From Elusimicrobiota bacterium (GTDB taxonomy: Bacteria > Elusimicrobiota > Elusimicrobia > UBA1565 > UBA9628), in assembly GCA_023213235.1 (NCBI GenBank), contig CP096137.1, positions 2,728,908 through 2,792,907 on the forward strand: 64,000 nt of DNA, in the 5' to 3' direction. Under the pieces are notes generated by a model. That model ran no database searches. It was not told the origin of the DNA and saw only the letters and a list, made by a program, of their open reading frames with translations. Made by a program: the position numbers and the translations under genes. Positions 2,981 through 13,050 of this stretch are shown here, in pieces (the first letter of the stretch is position 1; each line of letters begins with the position of its first letter).

Positions 2981-4139
2981 GCGGCCACCTTGGCGGCGGC
3001 GCGCAGCTTCTGCACGATGGCCGGCAGAATTTTGAGGAGCCGGTCCGCGTCGGCGTCCGTGCTGCCCCAGCCCGTCGAGACGCGCAGGGAGCCGGTCGCG
3101 ACCTCGGGCGGCACGCCCATCGCCGTCAGGACGTGCGACGGGGTCGACGCGCCCGAGGAGCACGCCGGCCCGCTCGAGACGCAGACGCCCTCGAGGTCGA
3201 GGGCCACGACGAGGTGATGCCCGTCGAGGCCGTCGAAGCTGAAGTGCGAGGTGTTCGGCAGGCGCGCGGCGCCCGCGCCGTTGAGGCGGACGCCCGGAAG
3301 ACGCAGCACGCCGGCCTCGATCTTGCCGCGCAGCGCGAGCGCGTGGGCGTGCGCGGAGGACAGCTCGCGCGCGGCGAGCTCGCAGGCGAGGCCGAAGCCG
3401 ACGATCGAGGCGACGTTCTCCGTGCCCCCGCGGCGGTTCTTTTCCTGGTGGCCGGTGACGAGCGGCGAGAGCCGGACGCCGCGGCGCACGTAGAGGGCTC
3501 CGACGCCCTTCGGGGCGTTGACCTTGTGGCCGGACACGGCGACGAGGTCGGCCCCGAGCGCCTTCGCGTCGAGCTTGAGCTTGCCCAGCGACTGCACCGC
3601 GTCGCAGTGCGCCAGCGCCCCGGCCGCGCGCGCCGCGGCGAAGACCTCCGCGCAGGGCTGCAGGACGCCCGTCTCGTTGTTGGCGTGCATGACGCTGACG
3701 ACCGACGTCGCGCCGTCGATGAGCGACTTCACGGCCGCGGCGTCGGCGGCGCCGTCGGCGCCGCAGCCCGCCTCGGCGACCTCGAGGCCGCGCCGGCGCA
3801 GCTGCCCGGCCAGGACCCGGATCGCGTCGTGCTCGATCCTGGTGGTCACGACCTTGCGCCGCGCCCCTTGGTCTCGTCGAAGGCCTGCCAGGCGCCGCCC
3901 GCGATGGCGAGCGCGTCGGACTCCGAGCCGCAGGAGGTGAAGACGATCTCAGACGCGTCGGCGGCGCCCAATACCGCGGCGACCTGCTCGCGGGCCTTCT
4001 CGACGGCCGCGCGCGCGCGCTGGCCGAGCGAGTAGGTCGAGTTCGGGTTGCCGTAGCCCTCGCGCAGCCACGGGAGCATCGCGTCGACCACCTCCGGGCG
4101 GACGGGCGTCGTCGCGTTGTGGTCGAGGTAGGCCGTCAC
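2977..4139 (-). CDS. iscS: cysteine desulfurase (IscS/NifS class), frame broken once
   Basis: The N-terminal part [21 protein letters not shown]...NPNSTYSLG...[11 protein letters not shown] lies at the C-end of ORF 3846-5600. The remainder (TTRIEHDAI...[19 protein letters not shown]...[17 protein letters not shown]) is ORF 2977-3849. Join near 3860-3870. The GTG start overlaps the stop of the upstream lipoprotein gene (GTGA). Confidence 0.85.
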
Positions 4140-4843
4140 TGTCCGAAGCCGAAGCCCTTGAAGAGGTCGTCGCCGCCGGCGGCCTCTCCGGCCGGCTTCG
4201 GCTTCTCGACGGGCTTGGGCGGCTCCGCTCCGGGCAGGGGCGCGGCCTTCGCGGCGCCCTTCGACGTCACGGGCGACACGACGGTCTTGCGCACGCCCTC
4301 GGAGAAGATGATGCGGCCGTTCTTGCGGTCGTAGTAAAGGCGGAACTGGCTCTGCTTGGTCTGCGGCTCGTAGGCCTTGCCGAGGTTGTCGCGCTCCTGC
4401 TCCCAGCCGGGGTTGTAGAGCATGCGGCCGCGGATGTCGACCTTCTTGGAGAGGATCGGCAGGGAGAAGCGGATGCGGTAGAAGCCGTTCGTGTCGGAGA
4501 CGCCGGGATCGAAGGACGAGGTCGCGAAGCCCGACGGGCGCGCCTCGCCCTCCTCGAGCGTGTTCTCGCCGCTGGCCACCGCGCGCACGACCACGCCCTG
4601 CACGGGGTTGTCCTGGTAGTCGGTGATCACGCCCTGAATGTAGCCGTCGAGGAACTGGGTCTTCTTCGGCGTGGAGAACAGCAGGAACTCCGAGGTGCCG
4701 GTGAGCTTCTCGGTGATCGACAGGTCGACGATGCGGCCCTCGGCGAAGTCCTCGACGACGACGTTCTTGTTCGAGGGGCCGCAGGCGGCGAAGATCGCCA
4801 GGAAAGCCAGGGGAACGAGGCGGCGCATGCGATATTCTATCAT
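4136..4843 (-). CDS. lipoprotein with carboxypeptidase-regulatory-like beta domain
   Basis: [17 protein letters not shown] lipobox. [12 protein letters not shown]...[11 protein letters not shown] resembles the CarboxypepD_reg pattern. Pro/Lys-rich tail. The start overlaps the inferred motB stop (ATGA). Confidence 0.55.
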
Positions 4844-5600
4844 TCGTTCCCCCCGGTCGTGGGAGGAGCCGCCGACGGAGAATCCGGATTCTCGAGAGGC
4901 GCCGCGGGCGGCGCGGCGGGCGCGGGGCGGCGGCCGCCGGCTCGGGCGGGAGCGCCTTGCCGTCCTTGTCGGTCTTCTTGATCGACTGGCTCTTCACGAA
5001 GATGACGACGCGGCGGTTCTTCGCGCGACCCTCGGGCGTCGCGTTGTCGGCGACGGGGCGGTTGCCGCCGTAGCCGACGGCGCCCAGATTCTTGGCCGGC
5101 ATGCCGTACTTCTCGATGAGCAGGCGGGCGACGCTCGTCGCGCGAGCGGTCGACAGCTCCCAGTTCGAGTCGAAATAGTCGTTGTGGATGTTCTGGCCGT
5201 CGGTGTGGCCCTCGACGAGAATCTCGTGCTCGGTCGCGAGCTTGGCGAGCGCCGGCGTCAGCAGCGCGAGCTTGTCGTCGATCTCGGGCGTCGGCTCGGC
5301 CGCGCCGGAGCCGAAGAACGAGACGCCGCCCTGCTCCTCGATCGAGATCTTGAGGCCCTCCTTGTCGATCTTGACCTCGCCCTTCATCTGCCCCTTGTCC
5401 ATCATCTCCTTGATCTGCTCGTTGGCCTTCTGAACGTCCTTGTTCAGCGCGGCGGAGAGCGCGTACAGGATGACGAAGAAGCACACGAGCTCGGTCATCA
5501 GGTCGGCGTAACAGACGACCCAGGCGGGCGCGGGATGGCCGACTTTCGCGACCTTGGGGTCGCTCTCGTCGATGAAGCCCTTCGGCGCGCGCATCGGCAT
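4840..5600 (-). CDS. motB: MotB-like stator subunit with OmpA-type peptidoglycan-binding domain, tail frame probably broken
   Basis: N-terminal plug/TM with the conserved Asp ([21 protein letters not shown]). OmpA-like LVEGHTDG...[17 protein letters not shown]...GYGGNRP...NRRVVIFV. In the frame of ORF 4840-5484 the Pro/Ala tail ends TTGGNE* with an ATGA overlap onto the next gene. Join near 4925-4935. Confidence 0.8.
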
Positions 5601-5609
5601 GGGTTTTCC

Positions 5610-6427
5610 TTAGGCGGCGGCGGCCGGCGCGCCCGGGCTCCCGGGGCCGGCGGCCCCTTGACGATCAGCCGCTTCGACGGCGGCAGGTACGCCTTGAGGT
5701 TGGCCTCGACGACGGACGGCGTCGCGCCGCTCTGCAGGAGCAGCACGCCGCGGATGATGATCTCCTTGATCAGCAGCTCCTCCTCGGAGCGGGCGCGCAG
5801 CTTGCCGCCCATCGGCAGGAAGATCAGGTAGCCGGAGCCGAGGCCGTAGAAGGCGGCCGAGAGGGCCAGCGCCATGCGGCGAGGGACCTGGGCGACGTCG
5901 TCGATCGAGGACAGCATCATGATCATGCCGAGCACGGTGCCGATGATGCCGAAGGCCGGCGAGTAGGTGCCGAGCGCGTTCAGGATCTCGGCGCCGCCCT
6001 TGTGCCGCTCGCGGATGAAGCCGATCTCGGTCTCCAGCATGTTCCGGATGAACTCGTGGTCCGCGCCGTCGACGACGAGCTGGACGCCGCGGCGCAGGAA
6101 GTCGTTCTTGATCCCCTTGAGGTCGTTCTGCAGCGCGAGAAAGCCCTCCTTCTTGGCCTTCTGCGAGAGGTTCACGAAGGTCACGACGATCTCGGAGGTG
6201 TCGTCGTCGGCGTGCGACAGCAGGGTCTTCTTGATGATCTTGCCCACGCCGATGACCTGGGCGAGCGGGTAATTGACGAGCGTGGCGCAGAACGTGCCGC
6301 CCATGACGATGAACACGGCCTCCATGTTCATGAACGGCTTGAAGCCGGCCACGCCTTCGCTGTGAAAGATCATGAAGACGGTCAGGCCGAAGAACGTGAA
6401 TATGCCGGCTATCGTCGCGATGTCCAT
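5610..6427 (-). CDS. motA: MotA-like proton-channel stator subunit (MotA/TolQ/ExbB family)
   Basis: Four-TM layout. LKGIKNDFLRRGVQLVVDG, YSPAFGIIGTVLGMI, ALALSAAFYGLGSGYLIFLPMGGKL. ORF 5498-6427 would overlap motB by 100 nt. An alternative frame ends AAAA-TAA at 5610-5612, 9 nt before the motB ATG and next to an AGGAAAA RBS, so a tail frame break near 5650 is inferred. Confidence 0.8.
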
Positions 6428-6442: not shown

Positions 6443-9048
6443 TTAGCTCTTCTGCCTTTCGTAGCAGCCGATCGGGTTGACGGGCTTGCCCGACGTGTTG
6501 ACGGCCTTGCGGTATTCCACCACTTTCGCGACGACCTCGTCAGCCGTCTCGCGGACGGCGATCTTGTTGCCCGTGGCGAGCAGCAGCAAGGTCTCGTGGC
6601 CGGTCTCCATCGTCTCGATGAGCTCGGCGTTGACGACGACCGCCGTTCCGTTGAGCTTATGCAGGGTTATCACCGCCGCCTCCCTGATCCTTTTGAAGAG
6701 CTTGTCCGCCCACGACTGCTTGCGGCACTCCTCGAGCTTCGCGCCGAGGTCCGCGGCCTCGCCGCGGGCCGCGTCGAGCCCGGCCTGCAGCTCCGCGGCG
6801 CGCCGCTCCGCGTCGGCCGCCGACTCCTGCGCGCGCATCGCGTCCGCGCCGAGGCGCGCCCGCTCCGCGGCGATGAGCTCCTGGGCTTCCGCGCGCGCCG
6901 CCGCGGCCTCCTCGCGGGCCGCCTGCATCGCCGCCTCCGCCTCGGCGCGGGCCGCGGCCGCCGACTCCGCGATCCTGCGCTCGGCGTGCGCCGCCGCGTC
7001 GTCGGCGCGGGCGCGCTCGGCGCGCAGCGCCGTCTCGTGCTCGGCCTTCTGCGCCGCGAGCGCGCGGCTCAGCTCCGCGCGCGAGGCCGCGAGCGCCTTC
7101 TCGGCCTGCTCGCGCGCGTTCTGCAGGATCTTGCCCGACTGCGTCTCGCGGGCCAGCTGAAGGCGCGCCGACTCGAGCGCCTCCTGCGTGCCGGAGACCT
7201 GGGCGGCCTGCGCGGTCGACAGCCGCTCGAGCTCGGTCTTCTCGGCCTCGAGCTTCGCCTTGTCGGCTTCCGCCGCCGCGACGCGGTCCTGGAACGCGCG
7301 GATCGACGCCTGCTGGGCGCCGGACTGCTCGCGCAGCCCCTCGAGCTGCTTCTCGAGCTCGAGGCGGTCGCGCAGGGCGTTCGTGCGGGCGTCCTCCTCG
7401 CGGGACAGCTTGCCCGCGAGGTCGTCGGCGCGGGACCGCTGCGCGATGACCTCGGACTCCTTGGCGAGCAGGCGCTCGCCCCACGACGCGTCCTTCTGCT
7501 GCAGCTCGCGGCGCAGGCGCTGGAGTTCCTGCTCCGCCTGCAGCGCGCGCGCGTCGGCCTCCGCCTGCATCGCGTGGCGGCGCTCGGCGAGCTCCTGCTC
7601 GAGCTCGGCGCGCAGCTTGGACTCGAGGCGCTTCGCGTCGTGCTCCGCCTCCTGGCGGAGCTGGTCGGCGATCTTGGCGGCGCGCTGGTTCAGCTCGTCC
7701 TGGGCCTGGACGCGCAGGCGCGTCTTTTCGGCCTCGACCATCTGCAGCGAGGACTGCGTCGCCTCGGCGCGCACCTCCTTCTCGCGCTCGACCCACTTGC
7801 GCTGGAGGACCACGAACTCGGCCTTGTAGCGTTCCTGGGTCTTCTCCCATGAAACGGCCTGACGCCGCATCTCGTCGAGCTGGGCGCGCGCGGCGGCGCC
7901 CTGCCGCTCGAGAGCGCTCGCGACGGCGCGCAGGCGCGTCAGTTCGGACGTCGCCTTCTCCGCGGCGTCCCGATGCTTGACGAGCTCGGCTCCGTGCTCG
8001 GCCTGGGCGCGGCGCAGGTTGGCCTCGTGCTCGCCCTCGAGGCGCTGCTTGATCGACGCGAGGTCGCGCTGGAGGCGCTCCTGGTCGGACATCAGGCGCT
8101 CCTCGCGCTCGCGCGAGCTGTGCCGCAGGGCGGCCAGGTCGCGCTCGAGGCGTTCCTGAACCAGCGCGGCCTGCTGCCGCGTCAGCGTGAGGTCGGCGCG
8201 CAGCTGGATCGACTCCTTCTCGCGGTCCGACGCGGACTGCAGGCGCGCGACCGCCTCCGCCCTCTCCTGCAGGACCTCGGTCAGCCGCTCATCGAGAATC
8301 TTGCGCTCGGCGACGGCCTTCGTGAGCTCGGCGTCGGCGCCGCGCAGCTTCTCGGCCAGCGCGCGAAGCGTCCGCACCTCGTCGTCCTTGGCGAGCGCGG
8401 CCTTCTGCCACTGCGCCTTCTCCTCGAGCCAGCGCCGCTCCATCTCCTGCAGGCGCATCGCGAAGTGAGTCTCGACCTCCTTGTCCTGGGACTCGCGCGC
8501 GGCGAGCTGGCTCTTGAGCGTCGTGACCCACGTCTCGCGCTCCTGGGCCAGGCGCGCCTCGAGCTCCTGCGCCTTGCGCTCGAGCTTGAGCTTGACGTCG
8601 GCGGCCTCCTGGTCGGCGCGGTCGCGGCGCAGGCGGTCCTGGAGCTCCTTGAGGGACACCTCGACCTTCGCGGCCGTGACGTCGTCCTCGCGGCTGCGCA
8701 TCTGGGCGAGCAGGGACTTCTCGCGCTCCTCGGAGACCTTCTTCTCGAGCTGCTCGAGCTTGGTCTCGAAGTCGGCCTTCATGCGCTCGATCTTCTCCTC
8801 GCGTTCCTTCGAGCGGTCCGGCGCGGCGGCGGGCGGGGCGCCGAACGACGGCGGCGCGGGCGGCGCCGAGAGGGCCGGCGCGCCGAACGAGGGCAGCGGC
8901 GGCAGAGAGGGGCCTTGCCGGCCATTCCGGGCAGCGGCGGAGGCATGGGAGGCTTGCCGGCCGAGGGCGGCAGCGGCGGCGGCACGGGCGCGCCTCCGCG
9001 GCCCGGAGGGAGCGGAGGCGGCGGCGGGAACTTGTCGTCAGCGGCCAT
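6443..9048 (-). CDS. polyproline N-terminus + ~650-aa coiled coil + C-terminal FlbD domain protein, frame broken once
   Basis: ORF 8779-9048 (MAADDKFPPPPPLPPGRGGAPVPPPLPPSAGKPPMPPPLPG...) continues after a shift near 8905-8915 into the frame of ORF 6443-8782 (...PPLPSFGAPALSAPPAPPSFGAPP...). This is followed by E/R/A/L/Q-rich heptad-like sequence. The last 70 aa (ITLHKLNGTAVVVNAELIETMETGHETLLLLATGNKIAVRETADEVVAKVVEYRK) match the FlbD family pattern. AAGGAGAG RBS before the ATG at 9048. Confidence 0.7.
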
Positions 9049-9072: not shown

Positions 9073-11116
9073 TCACGCGCGGGCCTTCATGCCGTCCACC
9101 CACTGCCGAAGACCCGGATCGGGGTTCGACAGCAGGACCTGCTCGAATTGCGCGACCGCGTCGTCCTGCCGGCCGAGCTGAACGTAGCAGTTCGCGAGGT
9201 ACTGGCGGCCCTGCCAGTTCCCCCGTCCAGCGACAAAGCGTACTCGAGATACTGCGCCGCCTCTTGAAAACGTCCGGCGTCGTGGTACTGCTGGCCGGCC
9301 GCGAAATAGGGCTTGGCCGCCTCCGCCTGCGCCGGCTGGGGCGCGGGAGGCGCGGGAAGAGCCGGCGCGCCGGCGCCGGTCGGCGCGGGCATCGCGCCGG
9401 CCTGGCCGCCCCCGCGTTGATGAGATTGGCGACGGCCTGCTCGGCCGCGCGCGTGCGCGGGGCGTACTTCTCGCCGCGCTCGCTGGCGACCTCCTCGTGG
9501 AAGCCGGAGAAGGCGTCGCCGCGGCTCTGCCGGACGTTGACCTTGCCCTCCTTCTCGAGCACCTTCACGACGTCCATGATCTTCGAGCGCTCCTCCTCGA
9601 TCTGCGCGGGCGTGAGCCCCGACGCGTACTCGATCGACTCCTTGAGCAAAGACGCCGCGCCGGCCGACATGTTCGAGAGAAACTTGTTGACGACGTCGGG
9701 CGCCGCGCCCTGGAGGGCCTTGGCCATCGACTCGGTCTTGAGCTCGCGCACGATCGTCTGCATGTCGCGGTCGGGGAACGTGACGGCGTCCTCGAACGTC
9801 AGGATGAACTTCCGCACGCGCGCGTAGACGTCGGGCTTCTCGTTCTTGAGGTACTCGAGGATGTTGGCGCGCGTGAGCGTGTCGGCCTCGTCGAGCATCT
9901 GCGTGAGGCGCTCCATGCCGCCGACGACGAAATCGACGGACTCCTTGATGTCGGCGTCGATGGCCATCAGCTGCTCGCGCGTGACCTGGCGGATCTTCAG
10001 CGCCTCGATGGCGATCTTGGCCTGCAGCTCGACGGGCAGGGACGTCAGCGTCGCGCGCGCGATCTCCGGCTTCAGGTAGCTCAGCACGACGGCGACGAGC
10101 CACGGCTCGTCCTGGCGGACGAGGAAGAGGTTCGCCAGACGCTTGAAGTTCTCCTCCGTGATGTAGGTGAAAGGCTCGAATTTCTTCATGGCATCCTCGT
10201 CCTCCTCCGTCGGAACGATCGGCGGCTCCGGCGGCTTGCGCCCCAGCATGATGTCGAGCTCTCCTTTGGAAAGCTCCTCCAGCGTGTCGTCTCCCTCGTC
10301 CTCGCCGTCCTTGCCCTCGTCCTCGGGCGACTTGTTGAGGACCTCGTACTCGCCCTTCTTCGCCTCGCGCAGAGCGGAGACGTACTGGCGGAAGAAGCGC
10401 GCGAGCGGCCCGAACAGGAAGGACAGGAACAGCAGCAGAAGCAGAGCATAAAGCAGCGGCAGGTAGACGGAGGGCTTCTTGAAGTCCTCCTTCCAGTCCA
10501 CGAGCGGCGGCTTGTCGAACTTCGTCGGCCGGAACGCGACCTGATCGGGAGCGAGCTTGTACTGCGCCATCGCGTCGACGATGCGCTCGCGCACGAGGTC
10601 GAGCCGCTTCTTGTCCTTGACCGGATCGAGCACGAGGTCGTCGTGGATGACGGTGACCTGGAAGCGCTTGAACACGGGCTTGAGCGAGAACCGCTCCTCC
10701 TGCACGCCCTTCATCTGCTGGGCCTGCTGGGCCTGGCTCTGCTCGGGCCGGTCCGGCGTCTCCGGGCCCTGGGTGATCGTCTTCGGCTTCGGGATGCCGG
10801 GCAGCACGAAGGTCGTCTGCATGCCGCCCTTGGGGCCCGGCGCCTTCTCCTTGTACTTTTCGGCCACGCCCATGCCGGAGCGCTGGGACTCCTCGCTCTC
10901 GAGCTTGATCTCCATCTCCACGTCGACGAACGGCGACGCCTTGCCCTTGCCGAGGATCGGGTCGAGCACGTCGCGCGCGATCTTGAGTTCGGAGTCGGCC
11001 TTGATGTGGTTCTGCTGCTCGAGCAAGGTCAGACTGGGAGCGACGACGCCCGCCGCGGCCCGGCCGGCGGCCAGGACGGACGACAGAACGAGGACGGCGA
11101 AGACGGGCGCGCGCAT
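9073..11116 (-). CDS. FliF(C-terminal ring part)-TM-FliG(middle+C domains)-TPR fusion protein, frame broken twice
   Basis: Signal peptide. ARDVLDPILGKGKASPFVDVEMEI and FKRFQVTVIHDD resemble the FliF RBM3/collar region. TM VYLPLLYALLLLLFLSFLFGP. FliG-like DEPWLVAVVLSYLKPEIARATLTSLPVELQAKIAIE, ILTFEDAVTFPDRDMQTIVREL, FLSNMSAGAASLLKESIEYASGLTPAQIEEERSKIMDVVKVLEKEGKV. TPR tail AAKPYFAAGQQYHDAGRFQEAAQYLEYALSLDGG / NWQGRQYLANCYVQLGRQDDAVAQFEQVL is recovered by shifts at G-runs near 9410 and 9214. Stop TGA at 9073-9075. Confidence 0.7.
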
Positions 11117-11173: not shown

Positions 11174-12727
11174 TTACTGCCGTATGGACTGGAGGAATTC
11201 CCGGACGCTGCGGTTGTTCGGGTCGATCTCCAGCACGCGGCGCCACACCGCGACGGCCTTGTCCTTCTGGTCCATCAGGAAGAAGGCCGAGCCCATGATC
11301 TCGAGCGCCGTCACGTTGTTGGGCTCGAGGTCGAGGACGTCCTGCGAGCGGCGCACGGCGGCGTCGTACTTGCCGTCGTAGATGGACTGGCGGGCGTCGA
11401 AGACCTTCTGGTCGATGAACGTGAACTGCTCCGGGCCCTCGAGGCGGCGGGTCGCGTCCTGGACGCCGGCTTCGCGTTCGACCATGTTCAGCAGGCCGAG
11501 GAGCTTTTCATCCCGGGGGTTCTTATTGAAAGCGTAGCGCAGCGCGTTGACGGAGACCTTGAGGTCGCGGCCGTCGACGTAGGCGATCGCGCCGCGGCGG
11601 ATGAAGGTCACGTACTCCTCGCCGCCGGTGGCCTGCGGGACGAAGTTCGTCACGTTGCCGAGGCGCGCGATCATCTGCGCGACCTGCTTGTTGCCGGGCG
11701 CGGCGTCCTGCGCCTGGTTGAAGCGCTGGGCGGCGAGCGCGAAGTTGCCTTCCTGGAAGGCCTCCATCGCCTGCTTGATGAAGTTCTTGACCTGGGTCGT
11801 GGAGCGGTCCGTGCGCGACTGGCCGAAGCGGAAGCTGACCGAGAAGCGCGTCGAGGAGCCGAGGTCGTGGATGCCCTGCGCGACGTCGAGCGAGAAGCTC
11901 TTGAAGTTGAGGCCGAAGCCGAAGTCGGTCTCCTGGATCTGCGGCAGCCCCAGCAGGCCGAAGCGGAACGCGAACCAGCGCGACACCCAGTACTCGCCGC
12001 CGAAGCGCAGGTCGGTGCTGCCGTTGAGGACCTTGTTGATGTCGGCGGCGAGCGTCAGGCGCTCCTTGAACAGGCGCAGGGAGTTGCCGAGCTTGATGAC
12101 GACGGGCAGCTTGTCGTCGGTGTCGCCGGTGCGCATCGCGAAGACGTTCTGCATGCCGAGGCCCAGGCGGTAGGCGCTGCCCATCTGCTTCATCGCGCCG
12201 ATGTCGAGCGTCTTGAAGTTGTCCGACGAGCCGCCGAGCTTGCGCGTGACCTGCTTGAGGCCCATGCCGAAGCTGACGGTCTCCGTCACGTTCTTGCCCC
12301 AGGCGAAGCCCATCGCCTGCTGCTGGTCGGCGAACGAGCCGCCGGCGGTGATCGACGCCGGCTCGTTGGTCGCCGGGTTGAGGACCACGTCGACCTGCTC
12401 GAAGCCGGTGTTCGCGAGCTGGGTCATGTGCAGCGCGAAGGTGGAGCCGCCCTTGGTCGGGTATGCGAAGCTGAAGTAGGTGAGCTTGGTCTGCTGGAAG
12501 AGGGTCGCCTGCATCGTGGTGACCTCTTTGCGCTGAACCTGGGAGAGGCCGGCGGGGTTCCAGTAGGCGGCGGAGGCGTCGTCGGAGATCGCGTAGTAGG
12601 CGCCGCCCATCGCGAGCGCGCGGCCGCCGACGCCGTAAGTCAGGAACGCGCCGGGTTGGCCGCCGCTGCCGGTTTGGGCGCCCGCCGCGGAGGCGAGAAG
12701 CGCGATAAGAGCGCACGCGCGCGCCAT
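11174..12727 (-). CDS. outer-membrane beta-barrel (PorV/FadL-like N-terminal motif) with C-terminal TPR domain
   Basis: Signal MARACALIALLASAAGAQ. GGRALAMGGAYYAISDDASAAYWNPAGL is the motif I associate with PorV/UPF0164-type barrels. Alternating beta pattern up to ...FSVSFRFGQ. TPR-like C-terminal 200 aa (DGKYDAAVRRSQDVLDLEPNNVTALEIMGSAFF...). The start was chosen at Met24 of ORF 11174-12796. Confidence 0.6.
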   Translation of the reverse strand: MARACALIALLASAAGAQTGSGGQPGAFLTYGVGGRALAMGGAYYAISDDASAAYWNPAGLSQVQRKEVTTMQATLFQQTKLTYFSFAYPTKGGSTFALHMTQLANTGFEQVDVVLNPATNEPASITAGGSFADQQQAMGFAWGKNVTETVSFGMGLKQVTRKLGGSSDNFKTLDIGAMKQMGSAYRLGLGMQNVFAMRTGDTDDKLPVVIKLGNSLRLFKERLTLAADINKVLNGSTDLRFGGEYWVSRWFAFRFGLLGLPQIQETDFGFGLNFKSFSLDVAQGIHDLGSSTRFSVSFRFGQSRTDRSTTQVKNFIKQAMEAFQEGNFALAAQRFNQAQDAAPGNKQVAQMIARLGNVTNFVPQATGGEEYVTFIRRGAIAYVDGRDLKVSVNALRYAFNKNPRDEKLLGLLNMVEREAGVQDATRRLEGPEQFTFIDQKVFDARQSIYDGKYDAAVRRSQDVLDLEPNNVTALEIMGSAFFLMDQKDKAVAVWRRVLEIDPNNRSVREFLQSIRQ

Positions 12728-12804
12728 GGCCTCAACGGGCACCAACGCGCGCGCGCAGCGCACAGGGGACGAGCCCCTCGCAATTTTAGCGGGCATGACT
12801 ATTC

Positions 12805-12969
12805 GGTAGCCTGACGCTCCCCAACCATCGGGGAGTCATGGCTTTGCGCCCCCGCCTTGCGGCGGGTTTGCCGTTATCGCCTGTTGGGCGCCCGACGGCC
12901 CGGACCCCCGCTGGATCAACCAACCCCCGATCCAAAAACGAGTCCGGAAGCGCGAAACAGGATGCTACC
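12805..12969. ncRNA. candidate structured RNA / leader in a divergent intergenic region (identity unknown)
   Basis: Nested complementarity read by eye: GGTAGC/GCTACC (12805-10 with 12964-69), CTG/CAG, CTCCCC/GGGGAG (12817-22 with 12830-35), CCCGCC-TTGC-GGCGGG followed by TTTG (12851-66), CCGGAC/GTCCGG enclosing GGATC/GATCC. No family assigned. Confidence 0.2.
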
Positions 12970-13050
12970 CGACCAGTGTAACGGAATTGTGTCGATTGTC
13001 AAGGCCTCGGGTCTGGACAACCCGAACCCGTCCTGATACACTCCGGGAAC

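Follow-up and report, generated by a model that had tools for sequence, protein, structure and literature searches.

A predicted helical rod gene and a stand-alone flbD, probably joined only by a missing base in the assembly, in a flagellum-free motor operon of an Elusimicrobiota bacterium

SwrD (YlzI) of Bacillus subtilis and FlbD of Borrelia burgdorferi are small flagellar proteins of one family (PF06289). SwrD forms hexameric rings with an interleaved beta-sheet, its conserved core of 48 residues includes Asn15, Ile19, Glu20, Glu23, Pro26, Asp27 and Thr28, its C-terminal tails are variable and disordered, and MotA is its top predicted partner, AlphaFold3 placing the ring under MotA (PMC13740483). 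Free-living, flagellum-less Elusimicrobiota keep motAB, flbD and fliG, and the role of these genes is unclear (preprint 10.1101/2022.07.08.499144). Here, we analyzed a stretch of 64,000 nucleotides from an Elusimicrobiota bacterium (assembly GCA_023213235.1, contig CP096137.1, positions 2,728,908 to 2,792,907 of the forward strand), hereafter the window, which holds an flbD-like sequence in an operon with motA, motB and a gene for a FliF/FliG-like protein. In the initial annotation, FlbD was described as the C-terminal domain of a long polyproline and coiled-coil protein. Comparison with relatives points instead to two genes, one for a long helical protein, hereafter the rod, and one for a stand-alone FlbD, the fusion being an artefact of a missing base in an A-run. 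From sequence comparison, we give this reading a probability of about 0.88.

The assembled minus strand shows an open frame from 9037 to a stop at 6443, 864 codons long. An open reading frame (ORF) of 779 amino acids (aa; 8782..6443, minus strand) is nested in it, and the FlbD/SwrD domain forms its last 75 residues. The FlbD profile search proposed in the initial annotation gave a clear match to PF06289 (residues 705-761 of the 779-aa ORF, profile positions 2-58 of 59, 61.5 bits for a cut-off of 24.7, E 5.8e-17), and FlbD reached 66.3 bits in the genome-wide profile search. It is thus true of the assembled sequence that an FlbD-like stretch follows the rod in frame and without a stop, as had been stated. 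The GTG noticed near 6672 as a possible separate start was located at 6673-6671, behind GGGAGG at 6684-6679. At the other end of the gene, the frame shift reported near 8910 was also seen: an ATG at 9048, preceded by AAGGAG, starts another frame, which reads MAADDKFPPPPPLPPGRGGAPVPPPLPPSAGKPPMPPPLPGMAGKAP and then nonsense, and the main frame resumes with SLPPLPSFGAPALSAPPAPPSFGAPP...DRSKEREEKIERMK. The four to five PPxLP-type tracts described at the N-terminus are present when these two frames are read together. If the two genes are separated, the predicted features are the following.

6657..9048, minus strand: rod gene, encoding a Pro-rich N-terminus and a long helical rod (about 795 aa), spread over three frames by two single-base deletions
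6443..6673, minus strand: flbD, a stand-alone 76-aa member of the FlbD/SwrD family, with start codon GTG 6673-6671 and Shine-Dalgarno sequence GGGAGG 6684-6679
8908..8911, minus strand: rod-gene break 1, in the C-run GCCCCT, one base short of frame, with a 1-nt window gap compared with the closest relative (locus L031); frame -2 to -1
6691..6694, minus strand: rod-gene break 2, in the A-run TTCAAAAGG, with four A (A4); relatives have TTCAAAAAGGAGGG or TTCAAGAAGGAGGG and end with ...KLFKKEGDGDxPA and a stop, in the frame of the window's KDQGGGGDNPA and stop

The junction between rod and FlbD was compared across 16 related loci, of which 11 belong to the same genus and five to other families of the order. 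FlbD is a gene of its own in all of them. In 15 of the 16, the rod stop shares bases with the FlbD start (GTGA or ATGA), falls 17 nt inside flbD (...KLFKKEGDGDQAP followed by the stop) or lies about 10 nt upstream, the exception being one distant locus. Within the genus, AAGGAGG is found upstream of the GTG or ATG of flbD. The closest relative (contig CAZURZ010000072.1, locus L031; 88% DNA identity, 87% protein identity) has gene calls of 758 aa and 76 aa overlapping by 4 nt. Hence, the idea of FlbD as a C-terminal domain of the rod is not supported by these separate genes, whose stop and start overlap or abut. In line with this, the three frames of the window's rod gene (MAADDKFPPPPPLPP...GKAP, SLPPLPSF...KLF, and KDQGGGGDNPA followed by a stop) are colinear with the orthologue P0002 (758 aa, 87% identity). 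In the DNA alignment of the operon with L031, the indels of the rod gene measure 3, 6, 87 and 21 nt, except for the 1-nt window gap at about 8912 and gaps of 7 and 1 nt at 6691/6674. At break 2, the window has AAAA (6691-6694) and some relatives have AAAAA; the window junction reads CTCTTCAAAAGGATCAGGGAGGCGGCGGTGATAACC, compared with CTCTTCAAAAAGGAGGG..GGTGATC in some relatives and AAGAAG at this place in others. A fifth A in the window would restore a relative-like rod end (...KLFKKDQGGGGDNPA followed by the stop TAA at 6659-6657) overlapping flbD by 17 nt, and this tail is found in the window's third frame. Break 2, 18 nt before the FlbD start, would bring the rod into the reading frame of FlbD, and the apparent fusion would result. 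Comparison with relatives thus predicts that polishing would place a stop before FlbD, in contrast with the uninterrupted frame of the initial annotation.

The in-frame continuity depends on one base in the A-run 6691-6694, and neither the other rod homologues (120 in all) nor any relative examined shows it, which confines it to this assembly. PF06289 was matched, among the 120 rod homologues, only in the window's own protein, and the same single protein was returned by a search with this FlbD part limited to proteins of 430-1360 aa. More than 100 relatives (63-89% identity) call an FlbD of 74-76 aa with the same start. In a phylum-wide sample of 201 genomes, 61 were FlbD-positive, and in 59 of these the FlbD open frame measured 61-159 aa; the window departs from this range, as does a high-GC relative with a long open frame that is non-coding. 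Long frames upstream of FlbD in some high-GC relatives were also considered and rejected as Arg/Pro/Ser-rich, off-frame readings of the rod gene that are not coding. Programmed frameshifting near the A-rich site before the FlbD Shine-Dalgarno sequence, with the window carrying the shifted product hard-wired, would be another way to connect the two genes. In many relatives, an A-run and the Shine-Dalgarno-like AAGGAGG indeed lie just upstream of the rod stop, an arrangement that loosely recalls the prfB-type +1 frameshift site. However, the site is not conserved as a slippery one, since it reads AAA AAG, AAG AAG or other variants and is missing from some relatives. A-AAA-AAG favours -1 shifts, whereas a +1 shift would be needed in the relatives that have it. 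As the rod frame of relatives is either +1 or -1 to that of FlbD, no single shift could serve all of them, and in other classes rod and flbD are not even adjacent. Of the explanations considered here, frameshifting is the least probable.

To estimate how often frames break in the assembly, 20 contigs of a congeneric genome (98% complete) served as the source of 149 ORFs in the high-GC3 frame, each of at least 200 aa, and these were compared with the whole genome of the window by tblastn; 105 had a qualifying orthologue (at least 60% identity and at least 70% coverage). Frame breaks affected 34 of these 105 orthologues. Over the 135 kb of conserved coding sequence covered, 41 junctions were counted, roughly one every 3.3 kb, and all but two of them (39 of 41) shift in the direction of a single-base deletion. 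When single-base deletions predominate so one-sidedly and break one conserved gene in three, they are the mark of an unpolished long-read-type consensus and not of evolution. The genome consists of a single 3.80-Mb contig with a marker completeness of 83.6%, compared with 97-100% in relatives. Between positions 3000 and 13000 of the window, seven breaks were found, all in the same direction. Both rod-gene breaks fall in homopolymers, the first in the C-run 8908-8911 and the second in the A-run 6691-6694, and the frame passes from -2 to -1 and then to -3. The five others, also in the deletion direction, are listed below.

Near 3865: break in a NifS-like gene outside the operon
Near 4920-4960: break in the MotB tail
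Near 5630-5640: break in the MotA tail
Near 9210-9222: break in the FliF/FliG-like gene
Near 9311-9374: a further break in the FliF/FliG-like gene

The likeliest cause of the apparent fusion would be an uncorrected consensus error in this long-read-type, single-contig assembly. Since about a third of conserved genes are broken, any ORF-based reading in this genome needs a check against relatives, and demonstrating the artefact keeps a false domain architecture out of annotation. Several points nevertheless weigh against two genes joined by an assembly error. The junction differs from that of the closest relative by 8 nt in total and not by a clean single base. The reading of four A for five draws on relatives at a greater distance and on the third frame, where the relative-like tail is itself partly constrained by the overlapping FlbD codons. 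The missing A is inferred from the comparison with relatives and from the pattern of errors across the genome. Moreover, rpoB and three large tRNA synthetase genes (12.7 kb) are unbroken, and the operon shows about 0.7 breaks per kb. A uniformly high error rate was dismissed on the basis of these intact genes, the rate being higher in the GC-rich operon. Because the error rate is uneven, small probabilities were kept for two other explanations.

The fusion could be a real allele of the strain, in which a true deletion in the A-run yielded a rod-FlbD chimera, with or without a separate FlbD initiated at the GTG. Such a fusion would be direct evidence of the binding partner of the SwrD/FlbD family, which is poorly understood. 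In favour of this allele, the assembled frame is open, homopolymer slippage occurs in nature too, and the four unbroken housekeeping genes indicate that error is not everywhere. On the other hand, the second break in the rod gene would sever its N-terminus and start codon, five more breaks affect neighbouring genes, including the NifS-like gene outside the operon, and a third of the sampled conserved genes are broken in the same deletion direction. Besides, the fusion occurs in no relative and no other database protein, and it would leave no linker before strand beta-1 of the interleaved-hexamer domain (PMC13740483). A strain allele is therefore considered improbable. Decay of the operon, with the breaks as real inactivating mutations and the fused frame as a by-product of pseudogenization, would account for a local density (seven in 10 kb) about twice the genome-wide sample rate, which also speaks against a simple assembly error. 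Yet, outside the breaks the genes keep 77-96% identity to their orthologues, without premature stops or large deletions and with triplet indels only. Breaks also occur outside the operon (the NifS-like gene, and 34 of 105 genes genome-wide), and a 39:2 bias toward single-base deletions indicates consensus error and not mutation. Decay is very improbable, more so than a strain allele. With two genes and a consensus error as the preferred reading, what remains is a conserved rod family with a polyproline head, which is the standing partner of a FliF/FliG gene with tetratricopeptide repeats (TPR) in a flagellum-free motor operon.

This operon is encoded on the minus strand in the order riboswitch, barrel-TPR, FliF/FliG-TPR, rod, FlbD, MotA, MotB and lipoprotein. 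Besides rod and flbD, it comprises the following elements.

12801..12881, minus strand: c-di-GMP-I-GGC riboswitch aptamer (RF03167, 67.4 bits for a gathering score of 59, E 9.9e-16, full model length), immediately before the first operon gene
11174..12796, minus strand: first operon gene, an outer-membrane barrel (UPF0164/FadL-like) with C-terminal TPR according to Pfam, intact when compared with the L031 orthologue
9076..11116, minus strand: membrane protein with FliF-like and FliG_M/FliG_C domains (FliG_C 83 bits, FliG_M 38 bits) and a TPR tail, in three frames by tblastn with the L031 orthologue
5610..6427, minus strand: motA (MotA_ExbB, E 1.4e-26), with the inferred stop TAA 5612-5610
4840..5600, minus strand: motB, with MotB_plug and OmpA domains according to Pfam and a break in its Pro/Ala-rich tail
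4139-4843, minus strand: lipoprotein gene, intact (241 aa), 88% identical to the orthologue in the related genome G005 (Cys-containing signal peptide), its start overlapping motB

The riboswitch accounts for the structured RNA flagged at 12797-13050 in the initial annotation, and the lipoprotein gene is probably the last of the operon. The window MotA is 96% identical to G005 MotA over residues 1-264 and its tail continues in another frame, while the MotB tail, in another frame, matches the G005 MotB tail. The placement of flbD directly beside motA and motB is the order of spirochaete and Thermotoga flagellar operons. FlhA (PF00771) was found in none of the 41 genomes searched for it, i.e., the genome of the window and 40 relatives. 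Across the phylum sample, FlhA was detected in five of the 201 genomes, one of which also has FlbD, and 60 of the 61 FlbD-positive genomes are without it. The gene content of the operon has already been noted in print (10.1101/2022.07.08.499144). New here are the demonstration of the artefact, the genome-wide estimate of error, the assignment of genes to rotor and stator sides, and the conserved tail of FlbD.

In the same 201 genomes, the rod core and FlbD were found together in 50, FlbD only in 11, the rod only in six and neither in 134, a co-occurrence inflated by relatedness among the genomes. The rod adjoins flbD in 22 of the 27 FlbD-positive genomes of the window's class and in two of the 24 from other classes. 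Rod and flbD are translationally coupled in the window's class. Five loci from other classes were inspected (L061, L063, L065, L067 and L069). In all five, the rod lies in a block made of the barrel, an ORF of about 611-631 aa, a giant protein of 1,546-2,103 aa and the rod, the barrel being missing or partial at the edge of the fetched stretch in two. The 611-aa ORF of L061 is the orthologue of the FliF/FliG-TPR protein, with Pfam matches to YscJ_FliF_C, FliG_M, FliG_C and TPR. In four of the five genomes, flbD is located elsewhere with motA and motB; in the fifth, no motAB lies beside flbD. Since the rod travels with the FliF/FliG-TPR protein and the barrel, and flbD with motAB, the junction between rod and FlbD can be seen as the seam between a rotor-side and a stator-side module. 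In these other classes, the giant protein before the rod carries C-terminal TPR in L061; an ORF of about 1,200-1,400 aa follows the rod in four of the five loci and is a fn3/Ig surface protein in L061; and the flbD-motA-motB cluster lies beside a pyruvate phosphate dikinase-like gene three times.

The FlbD of the window has the same stand-alone size (about 70-76 aa) as SwrD and B. burgdorferi FlbD. When counted from the GTG, it keeps N15, I19, E20, E23 and T28 of the SwrD numbering, i.e., the conserved Asn15-xxx-Ile19, Glu20, Glu23 and Thr28 occupy the same residue numbers (PMC13740483). Differences are found at two places. At the position of the surface residues Pro26-Asp27, part of the conserved Pro-Asp-Thr motif of SwrD (6590-6600, minus strand), the window and its closest relative have His26-Glu27, and most aligned close relatives have Pro-Glu/Gln; because the substitution is common to the closest relative, it is a real lineage substitution and not an assembly error. 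The C-terminal tail GKPVNPIxGYER (residues 52-76; 6446-6520, minus strand) is nearly invariant in 25 aligned close relatives, in contrast with the variable SwrD tails, and could be a binding motif specific to the lineage. In the AlphaFold2 prediction, the monomer (predicted local distance difference test, pLDDT, 67) shows two beta-strands, a short helix, two beta-strands and an alpha-helix, an order compatible with SwrD, and residues 68-73 form an extra beta-strand. Whereas SwrD and FlbD are flagellar, the FlbD of the window is not part of a flagellum, as FlhA was not found in this genome and the 40 relatives searched.

The rod family comprises 120 homologues, every named one of which comes from Elusimicrobiota, and as far as named homologues show, the family is confined to this phylum. 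Its N-terminal region is encoded as follows.

8790..9048, minus strand: Pro-rich N-terminal region of about 90 aa with 4-5 PPxLP-type tracts, predicted to be disordered

A PP[LMAVIF]P motif was found in the first 150 aa at least once in 86 of 119 family members and at least twice in 63. Many homologues without a proline tract look like N-terminally truncated gene calls. About 700 residues between the two ends contain no proline and consist of A (20%), E (15%), R (13%), L (12%) and Q (8%). With a scale of large hydrophobic residues, 24-32% of 35-aa segments exceeded the 95th percentile of shuffled sequences at periods of 3.5-3.67, about five times the value for shuffles, which is a moderate signal, and opposite-charge pairs from i to i+4 were enriched (z = 4.3). 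The heptad and periodicity test on the Kyte-Doolittle scale gave no signal over the rod because Ala ranks as hydrophobic on that scale. AlphaFold2 applied to the orthologue predicted residues 1-150 as non-helical (pLDDT below 55) and helices at 151-346, 361-517 and 525-734 (157-210 residues; pLDDT mostly 70-90). The E/R/A/L/Q-rich stretch, described initially as coiled-coil-like, would thus form a long helical rod with about 600 helical residues, a prediction supported by both periodicity and AlphaFold2. A conserved core of about 140-240 residues has 33 invariant columns in 17 sequences with 52-81% identity to the reference, including ERETW...QEMERRWLEEKAxWQ, and the region beyond it is helical and more variable. 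No signal peptide or membrane segment was found in the rod (maximum 19-aa Kyte-Doolittle mean 0.55), which argues for a cytoplasmic protein.

Comparisons of the rod with known families and structures gave no significant relative. Pfam yielded sub-threshold coiled-coil noise only (HAUS1, PKK, TPR_MLP1_2, FH1), the conserved-core profile matched nothing significantly among Protein Data Bank (PDB) sequences, the best being ribosomal uS15 with an E of 0.014, and Foldseek found no match to the AlphaFold2 rod model in the PDB. The likeness of the proline tracts to eukaryotic FH1 or profilin ligands, proposed in the initial annotation, held for composition and failed for the profile: like formin FH1 and the FPPPP ligands of ActA/WASP type, the rod has several closely spaced FPPPPP/PPPLP tracts in a disordered region, but Drf_FH1 (PF06346) reached 14.7 bits on the orthologue P0002 for a cut-off of 40, and the host is a free-living bacterium. 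At the other end of the rod, 27 of 119 members carry within their last 35 aa a short basic amphipathic motif ([LMVI][FW][GAKSHN]x0-2[KR]; for example SWxxKLFKK), an enrichment of about 19-fold over the 0.012 expected per 35 aa of protein body, although the motif is by no means universal in the family. Its variant in the window is SWADKLFK (6695-6725, minus strand), and SWTKKLFKK, RVFGKKE, GLFGGK and RLKWAIKGK are found elsewhere. This end motif resembles membrane-targeting helices of the MinD/FtsA type and may serve as a lead.

The rod would be a cytoplasmic scaffold of the rotor side, i.e., of the FliF/FliG ring, and FlbD, in keeping with the proposal made for SwrD, would form a ring that assists the MotA5B2 stator. 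Of the TPR tails suggested at first as partners of the rod, that of the barrel would be periplasmic, and only the tail of the FliF/FliG fusion is topologically reachable; the polyproline tracts may dock on this cytoplasmic tail. The co-occurrence of polyproline tracts and TPR was considered as a sign of their link and set aside as uninformative, both features being present wherever they were looked for. A filamentous scaffold working with FlbD and the stator is plausible. In a more specific and doubtful version, the rod would be the missing cytoplasmic part of a flagellum-free rotor-stator machine: its polyproline head would dock on the FliF/FliG TPR tail, its helical core would form a cage or spoke replacing the FliM/FliN C-ring, and the positioning or gating of MotAB stators would fall to its C-terminal end, located beside the conserved FlbD tail. 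The scaffold, the TPR docking and the membrane-binding end are all inferences from sequence, and the contact between SwrD and MotA was not confirmed biochemically by its authors (PMC13740483), which count against these roles. If true, the docking of the rod on TPR would represent a polyproline-TPR coupling undescribed for any bacterial rotary motor. Together, the rod and the conserved FlbD tail lead to concrete binding experiments for this machine.

Two motor systems offer a comparison for the rod. AglZ, from the Agl-Glt gliding motor of Myxococcus xanthus, is likewise a long, enzyme-free cytoplasmic helical scaffold, and both proteins are encoded with, and presumed to serve, a non-flagellar, proton-driven, envelope-spanning motor of the MotA/TolQ type. 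There is, however, no sequence or domain kinship between them: the rod is without a receiver domain or a significant Pfam match and has a polyproline N-terminus. The AglZ motor is of TolQR type, whereas true MotAB is found here with a FliG-type rotor. As for the flagellar C-ring (FliM/FliN), no cytoplasmic protein other than the rod is encoded in the operon with the FliG-type rotor, so that by its position the rod could fill the space under the ring, where the C-ring sits in flagella. It has no FliM/FliN homology and is predicted to be fibrous and helical, in contrast with a ring of SpoA domains, and the cluster gives no hint of switching or of CheY input.

Outside the window, a second, weaker match to the rod core was detected at G000:C1:2470628-2470894 (plus strand; E 1.6e-10), covering the first 89 profile positions within a frame of 543 codons. 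Its counterparts also match in seven relatives, and it may be a paralogue of the rod or merely reflect generic coiled-coil similarity.

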